Virus record (IMG/VR): IMGVR_UViG_3300035180_002081
Location: 1 to 62,116 of that record
Origin: a virus
Lineage: Duplodnaviria; Caudoviricetes
Direction: 5' to 3' (one strand)
DNA: 62,116 nucleotides
Shown in pieces: positions 4,930 through 62,116 of the stretch. Each line of letters opens with the position of its first letter. Positions within the stretch are counted from its first letter, which is position 1. The position numbers and the translations under genes are program-made. A model generated the notes under the pieces. That model was not told where the DNA came from, searched no databases, and was given only the letters and a program-made list of their open reading frames with translations.

Positions 4930-6429
4930 ATGGGCATCGTCGACAGGGCGATCGACCGCGCGCGCGGTCTCCTTGGCGAACAGGCCATGGCGCTCGCCAC
5001 GCGTGCGCTCGGTCCCCGCGGTGCTGCCCCCGCCGGTTCAGGCGTCGGCCCCGGCGCGCGTCCTCCCGCGAACATCTGGCGTGAGATCACGTCGCCCTCG
5101 CCGTACGCCGAGAAGCGCCCGTACACGTTCGGGCAGAACCTCACGCCCTCGGCCGTGTCGAGCGCGCTCCGCCTCGCCGAGCTGGGGTACATGCAGCGCC
5201 TGTCCGACCTCGAGTCGGAGCTGCGCGAGAAGCTGCCGCACCTCCAGGCCGTACTCGCAACGCGCGAGCTGGCCATCACCGCGTGCCTCCGTCGCGGCAA
5301 GTGGGCCGTGCTCCCCGCGGACGTGAAGGGCGCCGGCAAGACGCGCAAGGCCGCCGAGGTCGCGGACTACGTCCGTCGCCGCTTCCAGCGCCTTCCTGCC
5401 TTCGCCGACAGCGTCGGGCACCTCATGGGCGGTGTCTACTTCGGGCGCTCCGCCTGCGAGACGCTGTGGGCCCGTGACGCTGAGGGCATCTACCCCGGCC
5501 GGCTCGTCACCGTGCACCCGCGCCGCCTCTCGTACGCGACGAAGCACGACTGGGCGATCCACCTCTACGACGAGACTGGGAACGAGCACGACCCGAGCCT
5601 CGGGACGCTCCCCGGCCTCGATCTACGCAACGACCCACGCTCTCGCGACAAGTTCGTCATCCACGAGCCGAAGACCGTCGGCGCCGAGTACCCGACCCGC
5701 CAGGGCGTGGGCCGCTCGCTCGTGTTCACGGGCTGCTTCCTCCGCTGGACCTACGCGGAGTGGATGCAGTTCGCCGAGCTGTTCGCCCGCCCGTGGCGCA
5801 TCGGCAGCTTCGACAAGGTCATCGACGACGAAGACGACATCGCGACGCTCGAGACCGCGCTGAAACAGCTCGGGTCCGCGACCACCGCGGTGCTACCGAG
5901 CGGTGCGAAGGTCGAGATCCTGTCGCCGAAGGGCGAGCAGAAGACCCACGAGCAGCTGCGCACCGCCTTCAACGCGGAGATCAGCAAGGTCGTCCTCGGG
6001 CAGACCAGCACGACCGAGCTGGGCGACTCCGGCAGCTACGCCGCGACGAAGGTCCACGACACCGTTCGCCAGGACATCCTTACCGCCGACGGCGCCTCGA
6101 TCAGCGAGACCATCACGCGCGACCTCGTCATGCCGATGGTCCGCCGCACGTTCGGCGCGCTCGTCGCTGAGACGATGTGCCCGCGCTTCGAACTGGTCAC
6201 GCAGCCCGAGGAAGACCGCGACGCCGAGTTCACGCGCTTCGAGGGCCTCGCCGGCCTCGGCGTGTCGTTCGACGCGGACGAGGCGCGCGAGCGCTTCACC
6301 ACCCTCTCGAAGCCGGCCGAAGACGCCGTGCTCCTGAAGCCCCCGCCGAAGCCGGCCCCCGCGATGCCGCCGGGCGCACCGAGCGCAGACGCCGCAGCCA
6401 ACGCCGACCAGGCGGACGAGGCCGCATGA
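4930..6429 (+). CDS. Portal protein, Mu gp29/DUF935-like
   Basis: W..FAELFARPWRIG, NAEISKVVLGQT, GSYAATKVHDTVRQD; follows terL. Confidence 0.92.
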   Translation: MGIVDRAIDRARGLLGEQAMALATRALGPRGAAPAGSGVGPGARPPANIWREITSPSPYAEKRPYTFGQNLTPSAVSSALRLAELGYMQRLSDLESELREKLPHLQAVLATRELAITACLRRGKWAVLPADVKGAGKTRKAAEVADYVRRRFQRLPAFADSVGHLMGGVYFGRSACETLWARDAEGIYPGRLVTVHPRRLSYATKHDWAIHLYDETGNEHDPSLGTLPGLDLRNDPRSRDKFVIHEPKTVGAEYPTRQGVGRSLVFTGCFLRWTYAEWMQFAELFARPWRIGSFDKVIDDEDDIATLETALKQLGSATTAVLPSGAKVEILSPKGEQKTHEQLRTAFNAEISKVVLGQTSTTELGDSGSYAATKVHDTVRQDILTADGASISETITRDLVMPMVRRTFGALVAETMCPRFELVTQPEEDRDAEFTRFEGLAGLGVSFDADEARERFTTLSKPAEDAVLLKPPPKPAPAMPPGAPSADAAANADQADEAA

Positions 6430-49377: not shown

Positions 49378-50258
49378 GCGTGCCCCGCAGCGTCATCGAC
49401 ATCGTGCGCTCCGCCTCGGTGGCATCCGCGACGGTGCGCGCCGCGCGCGAGCAAGAGGCGGCGATCGACAAGCTGGCGCGCGAGGTCGCGAAGTCGAAGA
49501 AGCGCACGCGCAAGGGCGAACAGAAGCACCCGGTCGTCAAGGTGTTCGGCGAGGAACTCGCGGCCGTCGTTGAGCAAGTGGTCGAACAGACCGACACCGC
49601 CGCATCGAATCGGAAGATCCGCACCCACTCCGGGCGCGAGGTCCCGCTCTCGGCGCTCCGCGAGGGCGTGCTCAAGTACGCAGAGGCCGTGTTCGGCGCG
49701 GACAAGCCGCTGCACATCGTCTGCGCGCACTGCGGCGTGGTGTTCTTGGTGCCGGCGGGAACCAAAGCGCAGAACGTACCGAAGACCTGTGCGCGCGGGT
49801 GCAGGTGCGTGTGCGGTCGGCGCATCGGCAGGATAGGGGCTAGGCGCGCCGTGAATGAAGGCCGGCGATCAAAGTGTAGGGGATGCGCCAGCCACGAAAA
49901 CATGGCGAAGGTAACGACCGAGCAACGTCACGCGAACATCGCGGTTTGCAATGCGGCGCTGACGCCTGATCAACGCCGAGCATATGCCAAGAATGCCGGC
50001 GCTGCGGCCGCCGCCAAGCAGACGCCAGAGCAGCGCAGTGAGCGCGCCCGGAAGGCGGTTGCCACACGCGGTGCAAAGTCTGTGCAGGCGAGCGCGATGA
50101 AGGGCCGCGCCTCCATTGCCAAAATGACGCCTGATCAGAAACGCGCTCGCGCTATCAAAGGCAATTCCGCGCAGACGACAGAGCAGCGCCGCGCCCGCCA
50201 AGTCAAGGGCTGGGCCACCCGCCGCGCCAAATCCGCATTGAAGTCGGAGGCCGCATGA
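49374..50258 (+). CDS. Zn-finger plus basic T(P/T)(E/D)Q(R/K) repeat protein (putative DNA binding)
   Basis: CAHCG, CRCVCG, CRGC, five helical repeats. Confidence 0.7.
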   Translation: MSVPRSVIDIVRSASVASATVRAAREQEAAIDKLAREVAKSKKRTRKGEQKHPVVKVFGEELAAVVEQVVEQTDTAASNRKIRTHSGREVPLSALREGVLKYAEAVFGADKPLHIVCAHCGVVFLVPAGTKAQNVPKTCARGCRCVCGRRIGRIGARRAVNEGRRSKCRGCASHENMAKVTTEQRHANIAVCNAALTPDQRRAYAKNAGAAAAAKQTPEQRSERARKAVATRGAKSVQASAMKGRASIAKMTPDQKRARAIKGNSAQTTEQRRARQVKGWATRRAKSALKSEAA

Positions 50259-50443
50259 GCGCCGTCGTCTTCGTCATCCGCGCGCCGTGCGGCTGCTCGT
50301 CGCACGTCGAGGAGCGCGGCGGACGGCTCGCGGTCGTCGTGGATCGGTGGTGTCGCACGAAGGGGCACCGGCGCCGCCTCGGGCGTACGCGCTCGTGGAC
50401 GTTCATCGAGGTCGAAGGGGACAGGAGGGTCGCGCAGTCATGA
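50255..50443 (+). CDS. Small hypothetical protein
   Basis: ATGA coupling. Confidence 0.5.
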   Translation: MSAVVFVIRAPCGCSSHVEERGGRLAVVVDRWCRTKGHRRRLGRTRSWTFIEVEGDRRVAQS

Positions 50444-50516
50444 GCACGATCGTCGTCGGTGTGCTGCTGGCGGTTGCGTCGCTCGGCGTGGTTGTGTGGG
50501 CCGCGGAGAGTGCCAG

Positions 50517-50864
50517 ATGAGCGAAGACCTTTCGGCCGTTGCAGAAGCGTTCGCACGAGTCGTCCGTTCGAGCATGCCGCAGACGCCGGCCTGCTACTCG
50601 TCGAGCGCCCTGCCGCCCGGCTACCGCACCTCCGCCGGCTTCGCCCGCGCGTGCCGGCAGGGGCGCGTTCCCGGCGCCGTGAAGCGCGGGCGCGCCTGGG
50701 TCGTGACCGTCGAGAGCTACCTCCGTCGAGACGCGGTCGAGGTCGTGCCGCGCAAGCGCAGCGCCCGGCCGAGCGCGAAGGCTGAACAGCGCGTGCTCGC
50801 GAACCTCGCCTCCCGCGGACTCACCATCGCCGAACCGGCAGTCGAGCAGGCCAATGCCGCGTAA
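50517..50864 (+). CDS. Putative excisionase/recombination directionality factor
   Basis: CRQGRVPGAVKRGRAWVV winged HTH; overlaps int start. Confidence 0.65.
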   Translation: MSEDLSAVAEAFARVVRSSMPQTPACYSSSALPPGYRTSAGFARACRQGRVPGAVKRGRAWVVTVESYLRRDAVEVVPRKRSARPSAKAEQRVLANLASRGLTIAEPAVEQANAA

Positions 50865-52356
50865 GGCAACTGGCCAGATCGTCGAGCGCGGTGGGAAGCC
50901 CTACGTGCGCGCGACATTCCCTAACAAGCAGCGGCGCCTATTGCCGCTGACGATTGGAGCGAGCGCCGAACAGTTGGCGATGGAAGCGCGCATCCTCGCG
51001 CGTGCCGCGCGTGCCGGTCAGATCAAGCTCGTCGCCGTGCCGGAGCCGGCGCCCGCGTTCGAGACGGTGTCGAAGTGGTGGGCGCGCATGCTCACGATGA
51101 AGGAGGGCAGGGGGCTCAAGACGGTGGGGGACATGCGCGGCCGGTTCAAGAACTGGATCGAGCCTGTCATCGGCAGCCTTCCGATCCACGCCGTCACGGC
51201 GGACGAGCTGCGGCGCGTCGTCACGAAGCTGGACGCCGCGATCGAGGGCGAGAGCATCACGGCCAAGACCGCGTCGAACGTGTGGGGCGAGGTGACCGGC
51301 GCGTTCCGCGAGGCGTGCGCGTCGAAGCATGACGACCTGCGCGTGCGAACCGACAACCCGACGGAGAAGGTGACCGGTCCCGAGGACGGTGCCGAGCGCG
51401 AGGGCCCCGTGCTCTACCCCGACGAGTTCCTGCAGCTCGTCGCGTGCGAGGCGGTGCCGCTCGCCCGACGCCGGTACTACGTCGCCGCCGTCTACGTTGG
51501 GCCGCGGTCGAACGAGATCGCCGCCATCACGGCCGCGTCTCTCGACCTCGCGCACCTGACGCTGACGATCGACAAGCAGCGCGACCGCAAGACGAACGCG
51601 GACCGCGCGACGAAGACGAAGCGCACGCGCACGTTCCCGATTGAGCCTGCGGCCGTGCCGTTCTTCCGGATGCTCGCCGCCGAGCGTCCCGAGGGGCGCC
51701 TCTTCGACATGCCGCCGGACGAGCTGCGCGCGAAGCTCCTGCGCGAAGACCTGCGCACCGCGAAGCTCGAGCGGCCGGCGCTCTACCACGACGACGCGAC
51801 CCGCCACGGCCTGTGGCTCCACGACCTGCGGCACACGTCGCTGGTGTGGATGGCGATGCGCGGCGACGACCACCTACGCATCCAGTTCCGTGGAGGACAT
51901 AGCGACATGACCACGACGCAGCGCTACATCGCGCACGCGCGCAACCTGCCGGGCGGCATCGGAGGGCCCTTTCCGGCCCTTCCTGACACCGTCGAAAAGG
52001 CACCGGAAAAGGCACCGTCAGTGGTCGAGCCGCAGGAAGGCCAGGTCTTTCCTGCGGTGTTGGGTGGCGTCCCCAACGGGATTCGAACCCTTGACTCGGC
52101 TTGCCCCGTCGCCTTTGAGCACGTTTCGCAGCCTGACGCAGATGTTACGGGGGGTCCAGACGGCTCTAAAGGCACCGGAAAAGGCACCGGGAATGTGCCT
52201 ATTCAGCCCCTCCGGCTGACGCCCAGCGCCATCAGGAACGCGCTCGACGCTGGCGCCGTGCTGGAGGCCGTCGACCGAGCCAAGGCTGGTGACGAGCCCG
52301 CTGTGCTCGCCATCCTGACCGACCTCGCGCGCCGACATGTAGGAGGTGCGTCGTGA
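50854..52356 (+). CDS. int: Tyrosine integrase containing attP
   Basis: GPRSNEI (R), TKT (K), HDLRHT (HxxR), GHSD..TTQRY (H,Y). Confidence 0.95.
   Translation: MPRKATGQIVERGGKPYVRATFPNKQRRLLPLTIGASAEQLAMEARILARAARAGQIKLVAVPEPAPAFETVSKWWARMLTMKEGRGLKTVGDMRGRFKNWIEPVIGSLPIHAVTADELRRVVTKLDAAIEGESITAKTASNVWGEVTGAFREACASKHDDLRVRTDNPTEKVTGPEDGAEREGPVLYPDEFLQLVACEAVPLARRRYYVAAVYVGPRSNEIAAITAASLDLAHLTLTIDKQRDRKTNADRATKTKRTRTFPIEPAAVPFFRMLAAERPEGRLFDMPPDELRAKLLREDLRTAKLERPALYHDDATRHGLWLHDLRHTSLVWMAMRGDDHLRIQFRGGHSDMTTTQRYIAHARNLPGGIGGPFPALPDTVEKAPEKAPSVVEPQEGQVFPAVLGGVPNGIRTLDSACPVAFEHVSQPDADVTGGPDGSKGTGKGTGNVPIQPLRLTPSAIRNALDAGAVLEAVDRAKAGDEPAVLAILTDLARRHVGGAS
51995..52190 (+). repeat. Integrase arm-type sites: tandem AAAGGCACCG pairs flanking the core
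   Basis: AAAAGGCACCGGAAAAGGCACCG at 51995-52017 and AAAGGCACCGGAAAAGGCACCGG at 52168-52190. Confidence 0.8.
52065..52090 (-). other. attP: attP core identical to the 3' end of a tRNA-Glu-type gene
   Basis: Minus strand reads GGGTTCGAATCCCGTTGGGGACGCCA (T-arm, acceptor 3' strand, CCA). Confidence 0.85.
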
Positions 52357-54917: not shown

Positions 54918-56021
54918 ATGTCGTGGGCTCGCTTCGACGACGACGTGCTCGACCACCCGAAGCTGCTGATGGTCTCCGACCTCGCGGCGCATCTGTGGTT
55001 CAAAGCGATCGTCTGGTCGCGCAAGCAGAAGACCAACGGCGTCGTGCCGCGCCACGTCATCGCGACGCTCTTGCGCGTCAAGAAGACGGACGCGCTCGCG
55101 AAGGAACTCGTCGACGCGATCCCGCCAGGCAAGTCGGCTGGCCTGTTCGAGTCGATCGACGGCGGGTGGAAGATCCACGACTTCGATCATTTCGGGCCCC
55201 CGCAGCGCGAGGAACTCTCGGAAACGCGCGCCGAAGCAGGGCGCCGAGGGGCGGCGAAGCGATGGCAAACCGATGGCAAACCGGATGGCAAACGCGAGGA
55301 CGGAGATGGCAAGTTGCCATCCGCTTGCCATGCGGTGCCGATGGCAAACGATAGCTCACGTGCGGGCGCGCCTGCGCACCCGCTCCCGGGCGCACCTGCG
55401 TTCCCGTCCCGTCCCGTCCCGTCCCGTCCCGTGCTTGCTGACGCAAGCACGCAGGCTGCGGGCGAGCCGGCGAATGAGCATGGCCCTCGACCGTCGTTCG
55501 GGAAGGCCCCGCACGGCGGCAAGACCCTCGCCGAGAAGCAGCGCGACGTCGACGAGTGCGCTAGCTACCTGGCCTCGCGGATGGCGACGCTCGGCGTGCA
55601 GGACGAGCGCGACCTGCGCGGGTGGCTGACCGAGACGCTGCCCGAGTTCCCGATCCCTGCCGACACGCCGGTGCTCCCGCTCCTGCGGCTCGCCTTCGCC
55701 GCCGTGCGCGACTCCGCCGCGGCGACGCCGGGTATGCGCGCCGAATCGAAGCTCGCCCGGCTCCGAGCGCAGGTCGGGCTCAAGGCGGCCGACGACAAGG
55801 CCGACGGGTGGAGCTTCGCGCGGTCCGACGGGCAGGCAGGGAAGCTCGCCCCGAAGGCGCTCGAGCGAGGCGGCGTGGGCCCCGGCAGCGGCCTCGACAC
55901 GGCATCCGCGGTCGCCGACATGCAAGTGCTTGAGCGCGACCAGGAGCATGAGCGCGCGAAGCGGCGAGGCGGCGAAGCGAGCGCGACCCAGTTGTTCAGC
56001 GGCGTTCGGGGTGCAGCATGA
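54918..56021 (+). CDS. Replication initiator protein
   Basis: W.RFDD...DHPK, TNGVVP, GW.IHDF, RAEAGRRGA..RW; internal iterons; upstream of dnaB. Confidence 0.85.
   Translation: MSWARFDDDVLDHPKLLMVSDLAAHLWFKAIVWSRKQKTNGVVPRHVIATLLRVKKTDALAKELVDAIPPGKSAGLFESIDGGWKIHDFDHFGPPQREELSETRAEAGRRGAAKRWQTDGKPDGKREDGDGKLPSACHAVPMANDSSRAGAPAHPLPGAPAFPSRPVPSRPVLADASTQAAGEPANEHGPRPSFGKAPHGGKTLAEKQRDVDECASYLASRMATLGVQDERDLRGWLTETLPEFPIPADTPVLPLLRLAFAAVRDSAAATPGMRAESKLARLRAQVGLKAADDKADGWSFARSDGQAGKLAPKALERGGVGPGSGLDTASAVADMQVLERDQEHERAKRRGGEASATQLFSGVRGAA
55260..55350 (+). repeat. Replication origin iterons (GATGGCAA direct and TTGCCAT inverted copies)
   Basis: GATGGCAA at about 55261, 55272, 55284, 55305, 55340; TTGCCAT at 55314 and 55325. 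Confidence 0.75.
55403..55432 (+). repeat. (CCCGT)6 microsatellite in initiator gene
   Basis: Six perfect pentamers encoding PSRPVPSRPV. Confidence 0.9.
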
Positions 56022-59387: not shown

Positions 59388-59921
59388 ATGGCCCGACGAC
59401 GTTGTTTCGACGATGACCTGGCGTGGTTCTACCGGGAGGCCGCGGGCGAGATGGGCGTGCGCGCCATCCCCATCGAGCCGTCCACCGGCAGCGGCACGCA
59501 GCGCGACGACGGGCCGAGCGATCGCATGGTCGCCGCTGCCACCCGCTACCGGCGCATCGCCGAGGCGCTGTGGTCGCTCCCGCACGAGCATCAGCGCGCG
59601 CTCCGGCTCGTGCACACGGGGCGTACCCCGGGGCAGGAGAAGCGCTTCGAGAAGCTCGGAGACGCCGCCCCCGTCGCCTTCGACCTCGTCGGGCACGACG
59701 CTGCCATCGCGCTCCTGAAGCTCTCCGGGAAGCGCGCGTGCCGCGACTACGACCAGGCGTGCGCCGCGCTCGCGAAGCTCCGGCAGCAGGCTGAGGCCGC
59801 CGTTGCGCAGGCGCTGAAGGAGTTCCACGCGGCCCGCAGCGTCGTCCAGGATCTCGAGAGCGCCCGGAAGTCCGCGCGGCGTCGTGACCGCGTCCTCGCT
59901 ATCCTCGGGGAAGCGGCGTGA
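59388..59921 (+). CDS. Putative late-gene regulator (antiterminator/sigma-like)
   Basis: I.EAL.SLP.EHQRALRL helix pattern; near the end of the early operon. Confidence 0.45.
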   Translation: MARRRCFDDDLAWFYREAAGEMGVRAIPIEPSTGSGTQRDDGPSDRMVAAATRYRRIAEALWSLPHEHQRALRLVHTGRTPGQEKRFEKLGDAAPVAFDLVGHDAAIALLKLSGKRACRDYDQACAALAKLRQQAEAAVAQALKEFHAARSVVQDLESARKSARRRDRVLAILGEAA

Positions 59922-60334
59922 CCACCAAGGCCCGGCCCGCACGCGATCGGAAGCCGCCTCGCATGTCGCGGCACCTGACGCTGCGCGAGGTCGCGGACAT
60001 GCTCGGCATGAAGGGGCCGACCGCCCCACGGCGCATCCGCGAGCAGCTCCTCCGGCTCGAGGAGCGCACCGGCAAGCGGTTCCTCGTCCGCATGGGCTCC
60101 GACGGGACGGGCACCCGCTACATGGTCACGCTCGCGACGCTTCGCGAGCACCACCCCGACTTCTTCTACCGGCGCGACGAGGCGGCCGAGACCCTGCGGA
60201 CCTACGTCGAGGGCATCGAGGAGCGCTTCGAAGACCTCGCCGATCGCATCGAGGTGCTCGCGAAGGAAGTCGCGAACCGCCTGCAGAACATCGGCGAGCG
60301 GGTCCAGGTGCTCGAGGGGAAGCGGGCCGCGTGA
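59918..60334 (+). CDS. HTH DNA-binding protein with coiled coil
   Basis: LTLREVADMLGM; C-terminal heptads. Confidence 0.7.
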   Translation: MTTKARPARDRKPPRMSRHLTLREVADMLGMKGPTAPRRIREQLLRLEERTGKRFLVRMGSDGTGTRYMVTLATLREHHPDFFYRRDEAAETLRTYVEGIEERFEDLADRIEVLAKEVANRLQNIGERVQVLEGKRAA

Positions 60335-60386
60335 CCAGTGCCGCCGAGTGACGGCAAGCGCCCGCCTGCGGGCTTCGAGTGAGTAC

Positions 60387-61059
60387 GGCGCGTGGATGGG
60401 CATGCCCACCGCGACGCCATCCGCCCCACGCGAGGACGCTCGCGACCACGGGGCAACACGCCACCAACCTGCGCGGCCCTGGGCAGCGGGAAGGGTGGCA
60501 GACGCGCGCCGACGTGCCGGTTCGACCGGAGTTACGGCCGCGTCACCTCTTCCGCGCAGGGAAGCCCGCTACTCCGCGAAACCGGGCTTCTTCAACGACC
60601 CAGCTAGGCGCCTGCGCGTTCGGCATCCATCGCAGCAGCCGACGTTCGCGTCGGTCGGGTAGTCGCCGCCCCGAACACGGGGTCGAGGTCGAGCGGAGTC
60701 GCCGCCGGGGTTACAGCCGGAATCGCCCGCTGACGCGACAATGCTGCCACCTGCGGACCCGCCACGTGTGGGCACCGTTACGGCCACGCCGCTGCACGCG
60801 CTGAGCAACAAGTATCAGCCGTCGACGTGAGCCAGCCACCCCCAAGCACGCCGGCAACGGAGGGGGCAGCGGGAAGCTGAATGTGCCAGGCGCCAGACCC
60901 GCACAGGGCGAGGCGCCGCCTAGCGGTGAGATGGCTCCGGCGAGCCTGTCGGAGTCATGATCCGACGCGGGTGGTTCGACTCCACCCACCGCTACCGAGT
61001 CCCCCCGTGCCGAGCCATGCGAATGGCCACCCAAAGCCGGCAGGGCGACGGGGAGACTC
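60387..61059 (+). ncRNA. Putative large structured non-coding RNA region
   Basis: No credible ORF; consecutive nested stems such as CCTGCGCGG/CCGCGCAGG (60468-60560) and GAAGCCCG/CGGGCTTC (60561-60590). Confidence 0.55.
60922..60996 (+). tRNA. Atypical tRNA with CAT anticodon (Met/Ile2-like)
   Basis: AGCGGTG/CACCGCT acceptor, GGCTC-CGGC-GAGCC D-arm, GTCGGA-GTCATGA-TCCGAC anticodon arm, GGTGG-TTCGACT-CCACC T-arm, 3' ACC(G). Confidence 0.7.
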
Positions 61060-61118
61060 GCTGTTGTCGTCGACTCGTTTCGCGCGCTGACGTGCGCGCG
61101 CGCGGAGAAGGATCTGGA

Positions 61119-61409
61119 ATGCCGAGCGAACAGAAGCCGTCGATCGGGCGCGTCGTGCACTACGTCATCGCGCTCGACCACGTGGGGGAGCCCGTCGTTC
61201 AGCCTGCGATGATCGTCCGGTGCTGGCCCGAGTCGGTGAACATGCAGGTGCTGCTCGACGGCGGGAACGTGAACCGATCTCGGTTCGCCGCGCCCTCGCC
61301 GTTCGCGCCGACGGATGCCGAGTGCGCCGCTGGCATGGCGTGGCGGACCTCGGTGCACCACTCCGACGCGCAGGATCCCGGCACGTGGCACTGGCCGCCG
61401 AGGGTGTGA
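61119..61409 (+). CDS. Conserved small phage protein (KPSIGRVVHY...TWHWPPRV)
   Basis: Recognisable phage motif set; AAGGA RBS. Confidence 0.8.
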   Translation: MPSEQKPSIGRVVHYVIALDHVGEPVVQPAMIVRCWPESVNMQVLLDGGNVNRSRFAAPSPFAPTDAECAAGMAWRTSVHHSDAQDPGTWHWPPRV

Positions 61410-61428
61410 CCACGCTCGACTGCCACTC

Positions 61429-61536
61429 TTCGGAATCGCCCTGAGCTGCTTGCTGGTTTCGCGCGGCGCATGCGAAACGCGGAGTGCGTCGGAGCCGTCG
61501 ACTCGACACGAGCCCGCGCAGGAGCGATTCCGAATG
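61429..61536 (+). promoter_or_regulatory. Structured 5' leader sequestering the RBS of the INP-like gene
   Basis: TTCGGAATCGC-CCTG pairs with CAGG-A-GCGATTCCGAA, covering AGGAG and the A of ATG. Confidence 0.65.
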
Positions 61537-62116
61537 GCCAAGTCCAAGCCTGCTCGCAAGTCCGTGGCGAAGAAGAAGCCCGCGCCCAAGTTCACCGCCG
61601 CCGCGCCGGTCTCGGCCACCTCGGCGAAGCCTGCGACCGTCCTCGTACTGCGCACGTGCATGGCCGACATGGGCGGCACCCACTCGAGCGCGCGGCGCTT
61701 CATCTGGCCCGCCAGCGGCCCCGTGGCGGCGCCCGATTGGGACCCGTCGCCCGTGTGCGGCCACGGCCTGCACGGCCTGCTGTGGGGCGCCGGTGACGCC
61801 GGGATGCTCCGCTGGCAGGCCGACTCGAAGTGGCTCGTGGTCGAGGTGGTGGCGAGCGACGTCGTCTCGCTCGACGACGGCGCCAAGGTGAAGTTCCCGC
61901 GCGGCGTCGTCGTGTTCTGCGGCGACCAGAAGGCCGCGAGCGACTACATCGCCGAGCACGCGCCGAAGGGAACGATCGTGCACGGCGCGACGGCGACCGC
62001 TGGCTACGCGGGCACGGCGACCGCTGGCTACGCGGGCACGGCGACCGCTGGCGACACGGGCACGGCGACCGCTGGCTACGCGGGCACGGCGACCGCTGGC
62101 TACGCGGGCACGGCGA
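61534..62116 (+). CDS. N-terminal part of ice-nucleation-protein-like repeat protein (continues at 1..528)
   Basis: LVLRTC, FIWPASG, GLHGLLWGAG, WLVVEV, KVKFPRG, then TATAGYAG repeats to the window end. Confidence 0.85.
   Translation, partial: MAKSKPARKSVAKKKPAPKFTAAAPVSATSAKPATVLVLRTCMADMGGTHSSARRFIWPASGPVAAPDWDPSPVCGHGLHGLLWGAGDAGMLRWQADSKWLVVEVVASDVVSLDDGAKVKFPRGVVVFCGDQKAASDYIAEHAPKGTIVHGATATAGYAGTATAGYAGTATAGDTGTATAGYAGTATAGYAGTA
61987..62116 (+). repeat. 24-nt coding tandem repeat, 5 units plus a partial (same family as 1..360)
   Basis: YA,YA,DT,YA,YA; last 10 nt equal the first 10 nt of the window. Confidence 0.97.

Follow-up and report, generated by a model that had tools for sequence, protein, structure and literature searches.

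What does a phage keep in the longest part of its genome that holds no gene? The stretch of DNA analyzed here, which we call the window, spans an entire IMG/VR virus record (62,116 nt), in which an interval of several hundred nucleotides separates the replication genes from the genes that lead to the terminase. An initial annotation had described this interval as densely structured and tiled with stems, with an embedded tRNA, and had proposed a large non-coding RNA or a late-operon antitermination leader. We asked how much of this interval behaves as RNA, and in what form. The features discussed below are collected in Table 1.

Table 1. Features in and around the gap, with positions in the window.
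Feature	Position	Strand	Description
P0001, 138 aa	59918-60334	+	Last gene before the gap; ORF and GC3 signal; start possibly 59963
Whole non-coding region (gap)	60335-61118 (784 nt)	+	No codon-position GC periodicity
Invariant block 1 (domain A)	60374-60561	+	2 substitutions in 188 nt vs. L034
Domain A, folding	60376-60595	+ and −	Window z −2.08 on +, −0.86 on −; L034 z −2.44 on +, −0.49 on −
Hairpin P1	60387-60418	+	13 pairs, invariant; minimum-energy and centroid folds
Hairpin P2	60422-60455	+	Predicted by folding; adjoins P1, 3 nt apart
Irregular rod	60468-60561	+	CCTGCGC/GCGCAGG closure; nested GACGCG/CGCGTC and CCGG-TTCGA-CCGG; invariant
Hairpin T1	60561-60590	+	8 pairs; compensatory change in three lineages
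Domain B, folding	60604-60900	+ and −	Window z −1.99 on +, +0.53 on −; L034 z −5.11 on +, −2.63 on −
Invariant block 2	60606-60691	+	87-column identical run vs. L034
Predicted long-range helix	60607-60629 with 60875-60897	+	5′ arm in block 2, 3′ arm in block 3
Variable interior	60692-60830	+	Substitutions and 13-15 nt indels vs. L034
Invariant block 3	60831-60901	+	71-nt identical run vs. L034
tRNA, anticodon CAT	60922-60996	+	ARAGORN in window and L034; cloverleaf, 7-nt anticodon loop
Hairpin T2	60996-61060	+	Directly 3′ of tRNA; base conserved, interior diverged
Invariant block 4	61068-61121	+	54-nt identical run; inverted repeat 61081-61100, Shine-Dalgarno GGAGAAGG 61104-61111, start codon 61119
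P0003, 96 aa	61119-61409	+	phrog_2293; function unknown
RNA-ligase-family protein, 180 aa	998-1540		PF09414, 51.4 bits; phrog_548; ~2 kb 3′ of the tRNA across the record ends
Sigma-70-type promoter match	45037-45010	−	TTGACA, 16 nt, TATGTT, upstream TG; only strong one in 32-51 kb
Iteron-like repeats	55260-55293		11-nt unit in 3 tandem copies, within the replication-initiator gene
Second long stretch with weak codon periodicity	about 49726-50985		Just 5′ of the integrase gene 50854-52356

The record is classed as linear, with a CheckV completeness of 80, and a 24-nt tandem repeat array occupies both of its ends (14.8 copies at 1-356 and 5.3 copies at 61990-62116). A DUF7666/phrog_18079 protein owes its TATAGYAG-type repeats to this array. 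With both record ends in one repeat array, the assembly must have broken inside the DUF7666 gene. Gene order can therefore be followed across the break, and the genome is likely to be circularly permuted or close to complete. Relatives of this repeat protein were also seen at many IMG/VR contig ends. On the 5′ side of the gap lie a replication initiator (54918), DnaB (56018), a RusA-like protein (57532), and then six small ORFs. On its 3′ side, continuing across the record ends, are P0003, the repeat protein, an RNA-ligase-family gene that may be linked to tRNA repair, TerS (2996), TerL (3444), the portal, a protease, and the major head protein. No INPHARED phage has a TerL more than 31% identical to this one, and thus no cultured relative is known. 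Elsewhere in the genome, a minus-strand block at 34.3-45 kb carries recombination genes and an integrase gene lies at 50854. The sigma-70-type promoter match heading this minus-strand operon is probably the early-left promoter, and the second stretch of weak codon periodicity may hold attP or low-GC3 genes.

The gap itself showed no sign of encoding protein. The codon-position GC plot showed strong third-position GC (0.9-1.0) on either side, ending at 60334 and resuming at about 61130, and no such signal in between. In addition, every ORF crossing the gap is broken by indels in L034, the one full-length relative that we found. Given the lack of a codon-position GC signal and of any ORF that survives the relative's indels, we conclude that the gap is non-coding and that no protein ORF covers the region. 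The description of this interval as the longest gene-free stretch also held across the whole record: 885 nt were flagged here as non-periodic, and the next longest was a 600-nt piece near 49.7-50.3 kb.

L034 was recovered by way of P0001, the gene immediately upstream. At E ≤ 0.001, a search of 5.8 billion proteins with P0001 returned only three, including the protein encoded in the window itself. An alignment of the three identified L034 among genome contigs; the same alignment gave no match among metagenome and viral contigs. L034 is an 11.2-kb contig binned in a 10.7-Mb high-GC MAG labelled uncultured delta proteobacterium. It shares 91% identity with the window over 5.4 kb on the upstream side, and 84% through the gap and the genes beyond it. 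Among the 10 sequencing runs returned as carrying the region, none was listed as RNA. Partial variants were obtained as Logan contigs of four public DNA runs. One of these (X3) is of the L034 type and another (X2) is a closer variant of the window, while X7 and X8 are from runs of different studies, with one contig each at a depth of about 5, spanning 60452-60656. Our comparison therefore comprises only two full-length sequences, the window and L034, together with partial, low-depth variants. Directly after its P0001 homologue, L034 carries an extra 151-aa Mom-family ORF (5414-5869; PF25680, 27.8 bits against a cutoff of 27.1), and the X2 contig departs from the window sequence at 60335 into different DNA. 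The junction after P0001 thus looks like a hot spot for gene insertion.

Wider searches returned no further copy. As single-protein queries, neither P0001 nor P0003 led to a syntenic relative, whether in viral, metagenome, or genome contigs; the only match to the P0003 query, L003, was set aside at 33% identity, with neither the gap nor the tRNA. P0004 (DUF7666) gave 30 loci. A tRNA was found in 0 of the 18 that were scanned (L004-L021), and apart from L017 the flanks of these loci shared no other gene with the window. When the gap was compared with 31 loci (L003-L033), blastn gave only short, weak matches and nhmmer gave none. Exact words from four blocks occurred in IMG/VR 0, 0, 0, and one time, and the single hit, a 21-mer in L065, lies inside a coding region and was dismissed as a chance match. 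DNA searches of genomes sampled from the host MAG's class (401) and order (401) returned, for the class, only GC-rich matches of 22-72 nt at up to 50.9 bits besides the MAG and, for the order, 1 of 401 genomes at E ≤ 1e-8, which was the MAG itself. The INPHARED phage collection held no match to the region, and no second copy was found in the host MAG.

The two genes that border the gap offered limited functional information. P0001 is predicted to form a winged helix followed by a long coiled coil (AlphaFold mean pLDDT 65.7), and Pfam gave a weak HTH hint below the cutoff. A Foldseek search of this model against the PDB returned 0 matches at E ≤ 0.001 and only generic MarR-type winged-helix rows at E ≥ 0.2, and the P0001 sequence matched only coiled-coil noise in the PDB. 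P0003 is 81-89% identical to its L034 counterpart at each codon position.

Comparison of the window with L034 divided the gap into four nearly invariant blocks and the segments between them, which differ by many substitutions and by indels of 8-15 nt. For reference, third-codon-position identity between the two sequences is 70.5% in P0001, 81% in P0003, and 69% to 94% in the other genes. The partial variants X2, X7, and X8 repeated this pattern: differences clustered at 60562-60589, and the adjoining blocks had hardly any. Over 60374-60618, X2 has one difference from the window, and the part of block 1 covered by X7 is unchanged. Block 2 of X2 carries a G>A change at 60659 and a 63-letter replacement at 60618-60623, where 4 nt were swapped out. 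Block 4 contains a perfect 7+6+7 inverted repeat adjoining the ribosome-binding site of P0003, and its fold was no better than that of shuffled sequences (z = +1.62).

Invariance of this kind need not reflect selection on RNA. The same two genomes share identical runs of 100-266 nt within coding genes as well (the rep gene and DnaB), and in such mosaic genomes part of the block invariance may stem from recent recombination instead of selection. A broader version of this explanation, which we consider unlikely, is that the blocks act as DNA (binding sites for the adjacent winged-helix protein or for other factors, a late promoter/operator array, or a site for replication or packaging) or are identical through recent recombination, leaving only the tRNA and the hairpins as RNA. 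The mosaic genomes, with their coding runs of up to 266 nt, would be expected under this explanation, as would a swap point after P0001, where L034 has the Mom-family gene and X2 a different sequence. The inverted repeat beside the ribosome-binding site and the modeled winged helix and coiled coil of P0001 are also consistent with it. However, identity toggles on a scale of 50-200 nt within 800 nt, and does so likewise in X7, X8, and X2, and 188 contiguous invariant bases are long for protein-binding sites. Moreover, no iterons or significant repeats were found in the gap: a 13-nt internal direct repeat was not significant (28 of 300 shuffles scored at least its local alignment value of 26), and the count of 15-mers was at chance level, so that a 15-nt direct repeat was also discarded. 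Iteron-like repeats instead lie within the rep gene. These may mark the replication origin, and this possible origin counts against one in the gap. Finally, the folding excess described below is specific to one strand, which also argues against blocks that act as DNA.

We next consider the structures that the gap could form as RNA. All of the stems named in the initial annotation are present in the sequence, and most of them also appear in minimum-energy folds of sub-segments. These include the hairpins at 60387-60418 and 60423-60454, the CCTGCGCGG/CCGCGCAGG closure with its nested GACGCG/CGCGTC and CCGG-TTCGA-CCGG elements, the GAAGCCCG/CGGGCTTC hairpin, and the GAGTC.../...GACTC hairpin. The exception was GCCAT-GCGA-ATGGC, put forward as a hairpin with a GNRA loop, which is absent from the minimum-energy fold and is not kept in L034.

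Block 1 opens with the hairpins P1 and P2, which together span 69 nt. The sole two substitutions in the block are the bases that flank P2, which read C/A in the window and T/G in L034, with X3 showing A>G at 60455. A change from C/A to U/G is suggestive of pairing, though as a signal it amounts to a single event. The rod that follows folded somewhat better than most shuffles (60462-60562, z = −1.81, 14 of 200 shuffles as good), and a C>A change at 60552 in X8 breaks one of its predicted pairs.

Immediately beyond lies T1, where the pairing was kept while the sequence changed. The pair 60562:60589 is A:U in the window, C:G in L034, and U:A in X7 and X8, and the pair 60563:60588 is A:U, U:A, and C:G, respectively. 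A third pair, 60565:60586, reads C:G in the window, U:G in L034, and C:A in X7 and X8. The T1 loop also differs in length: its 14 nt in the window compare with 6 nt in L034.

The embedded tRNA proved to be genuine as well. ARAGORN called it as tRNA-Met(CAT), the single tRNA in the whole window, and compared with L034 it carries compensatory changes at two acceptor pairs and one T-stem pair. In the ARAGORN drawing, the linker between the acceptor and D stems is A-G-A, a U-U stands at the base of the D stem, a G:A occupies loop positions 32/38, and a G follows on the 3′ side of the anticodon. We take the A-G-A linker, the D-stem U-U, and the G beside the anticodon to be unusual features. In X2, a T60932A change converts the U-U to A:U. 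At Rfam gathering thresholds, cmscan gave no match to the tRNA; its best match was tRNA-Sec at 36.8 bits, against a gathering threshold of 47. No near copy was found in the host MAG, where only T-arm-sized matches of up to 33.7 bits occurred. Directly 3′ of the tRNA, T2 folds as one long hairpin in both the window (z = −4.14, 0 of 200 shuffles as good) and L034 (z = −3.27, 1 of 200), even though only 21 of 38 aligned bases are identical in its interior (61000-61039).

Across all named stems, 5 of 54 pairs change on both sides between the window and L034: two in T1, two in the acceptor stem, and one in the T stem. When partners were slid by 1-3 columns as a control, 0-1 two-sided changes were counted. 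In a column-shuffle control, 62 of 500 shuffles matched the observed covariation, which is not significant with only two rows. Compensatory changes were seen only in T1 and the tRNA, and T2 is supported by the separate folds of its two versions; the long blocks are invariant and, with two full-length sequences, carry no covariation signal.

Folding energies added a modest excess above chance that was specific to the plus strand. In two runs over the whole region, plus-strand z was −2.73 and −2.91, with none of 20 and none of 60 shuffles, respectively, folding as well; the minus strand gave −1.64 and −0.81 in the same two runs. Sixteen coding control windows of 297 nt had a mean z of −0.08 (sd 0.86, minimum −1.84). 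Among 120-nt windows on the plus strand starting at 60320-61080, 4 of 20 reached z ≤ −2 (one at T1 and three at the tRNA and T2), compared with 2 of 40 of the other 120-nt windows scanned. From 60520 to 60800, by contrast, such windows had z between −0.1 and +2.1, and folding stayed at chance level through about 60840. The picture of a region densely tiled with stems is thus borne out only as a modest, strand-specific excess over the whole, since most 120-nt windows fold no better than chance.

Taken together, the sequence comparisons show a real, functional region in which at least three modules are under constraint as plus-strand RNA. With this many modules on one strand, transcription of the whole stretch is the most economical assumption. 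We weighed three RNA-based readings of what the transcript would be.

The first is that the gap holds two small genes, namely a trans-acting sRNA of about 215 nt, consisting of block 1 with T1 for a terminator, and a separate tRNA gene that would end at T2, with the rest being spacer or promoter DNA. Block 1 is indeed followed directly by T1, in which pairing but not sequence was kept, domain A folds better than shuffles in both full-length sequences on the plus strand only (z = −2.1 and −2.4), and T2 lies directly 3′ of the tRNA. Yet we detected no promoter 5′ of either block 1 or the tRNA, neither T1 nor T2 has a U tract, and the invariance of blocks 2, 3, and 4 would be left unexplained. 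We therefore regard this reading as improbable, more so than the DNA-based explanation above.

The second reading is one large, free-standing non-coding RNA of about 600-700 nt, from 60375 to about 61060, with the tRNA near its 3′ end. Here, core blocks would be joined by variable peripheral hairpins, and the predicted helix between blocks 2 and 3 would close a 290-nt domain. This helix is predicted at a pair probability of about 0.99 in both the window and L034, despite their different interiors, and with a duplex energy of −43.1 kcal/mol it stands 4th among some 3100 genome windows. The alternation of invariant blocks with variable, hairpin-forming segments (T1, T2, and in L034 the segment V3, at z = −4.3) and the plus-strand excess of the whole region (z = −2.9) also fit such an RNA. 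So does its setting, given that the phage and prophage RNAs GOLLD and ROOL are described as often lying near tRNA islands (10.1101/2024.12.08.627333). Several observations weigh on the other side. Both arms of the helix are invariant, and the 63-letter replacement in X2 interrupts the 5′ arm. Most 120-nt windows from 60520 to 60840 fold no better than shuffles, and in the window itself segments V2 and V3 are unexceptional (z = +0.15 and −1.16). No other copy appeared in four IMG/VR word scans or in the 401+401 genomes, so that a lineage-restricted element of this kind would be unlike the widespread ornate RNAs.

Searches for known RNA classes also gave this reading no help. Over the whole window, cmscan returned 0 Rfam matches at gathering scores, and at E ≤ 10 the intervals 60000-61600 of the window and 5380-6700 of L034 matched only tRNA-Sec and noise. 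Neither GOLLD (RF01998) nor ROOL (RF03087) gave a covariance-model match at E ≤ 10 in the window or L034, and 6S RNA, tmRNA, riboswitches, and known ribozymes likewise had no Rfam match, so the gap is none of these. The suggested link to GOLLD and ROOL accordingly fell away, as no Rfam family except tRNA was matched at this threshold. We consider a single large RNA unlikely, and it is similarly doubtful that 60375-61060 represents a new RNA class of a rare, high-GC phage lineage, linked to a non-canonical tRNA(CAU), in which a GOLLD-like arrangement arose independently.

The third reading, which we tentatively prefer, is that the gap is a transcribed, modular plus-strand leader between early and late genes that doubles as the precursor of tRNA(CAU) and contains cis-acting RNA control elements. 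A leader would be at home where the gap lies, with the replication/RusA genes before it and the terminase-proximal genes after it. In this part of the initial proposal, what stood was a functional non-coding region with plus-strand structure, a real tRNA, and a location suited to a leader.

Standard regulatory signals were sought in and around the gap. On the plus strand of the region, no sigma-70 promoter was found even at 7 of 12 matches, except for one inside the tRNA, and a sigma-54-like GG-N10-GC near 60770-60784, seen by eye, was rejected as a poor match. A terminator scan of 59800-61700 returned 0 hairpin-plus-U-tract sites: T1 and T2 have stems with T-poor tails. The genome does contain a strong sigma-70 promoter match and canonical terminators in other places. 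The neighboring proteins showed no match to a Q, N, or other antiterminator family.

Under the preferred leader reading, block 1 would be transcribed by RNA polymerase that either reads in from the upstream operon or starts at an unseen activator-dependent promoter. The P1-P2 pair of stem-loops and the rod could then act in cis on transcription or processing. Further along, T1 and T2 might be hairpins for termination, pausing, or RNase processing; in that role they would gate read-through toward P0003 and the late genes and could also release the tRNA. Finally, the inverted repeat and Shine-Dalgarno sequence of block 4 may control P0003 expression.

To our knowledge, temporal control in phages of high-GC, myxobacteria-related hosts is essentially unstudied, and the gap offers a compact, well-delimited candidate for an early-to-late switch, with three RNA modules whose pairing appears to be selected and four near-unchanging blocks. 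Should the blocks function as RNA, the gap could be a leader for protein-independent antitermination, or for processing, in a phage from outside the enterobacterial group; alternatively, it could be a large RNA of a new, tRNA-linked type. Blocks that function as DNA would instead make it an operator or promoter array of unusual length.

The closest parallel in layout may be the late-regulatory region of lambdoid phages, which lies between the nin/Q genes and the late operon and contains a promoter-proximal terminator and, in some phages, tRNA genes. The gap likewise follows replication and RusA-type genes, precedes the terminase-leading genes, and carries plus-strand hairpins and a tRNA. However, it comes without a detected Q-like protein, sigma-70 promoter, or U-tract terminator, and it is much longer (784 nt), with long invariant blocks. 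As in phage-encoded tRNAs generally, the tRNA of the gap forms a cloverleaf whose stems are kept by compensatory changes, but it scores below the Rfam tRNA gathering threshold and has an odd D arm and a G beside the anticodon.

A second point of comparison is the put RNAs of phage HK022, described as about 70 nt long with two stem-loops, located upstream of terminators, and acting in cis to bring about processive antitermination (PMC9378689). P1-P2 similarly comprises two adjacent, invariant stem-loops within 69 nt, 5′ of T1 and T2. Still, no promoter is seen upstream of P1-P2, no canonical terminator was detected, put does not appear among the Rfam results, and the host is a high-GC MAG labelled delta proteobacterium rather than an enterobacterium. 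Further hallmarks of put-type RNAs are homology to putL/putR and binding to the zinc-binding domain of the RNA polymerase beta-prime subunit. The likeness is one of layout, drawn by description, and we treat it as a lead only.

The gap can also be set beside GOLLD and ROOL, which one account presents as phage and prophage RNAs often found near tRNA islands, with tRNAs sometimes inside a GOLLD linker (10.1101/2024.12.08.627333). Like them, the gap is phage-borne, runs to several hundred nucleotides, and lies next to or around a tRNA. It differs in having its tRNA at the 3′ end, in its modest folding excess, in the two full copies known, and in the lack of a model match. Relative to the known early/late intergenic control regions of phages that include a tRNA, what is new here is the combination of unusually long invariant blocks with an atypical tRNA.
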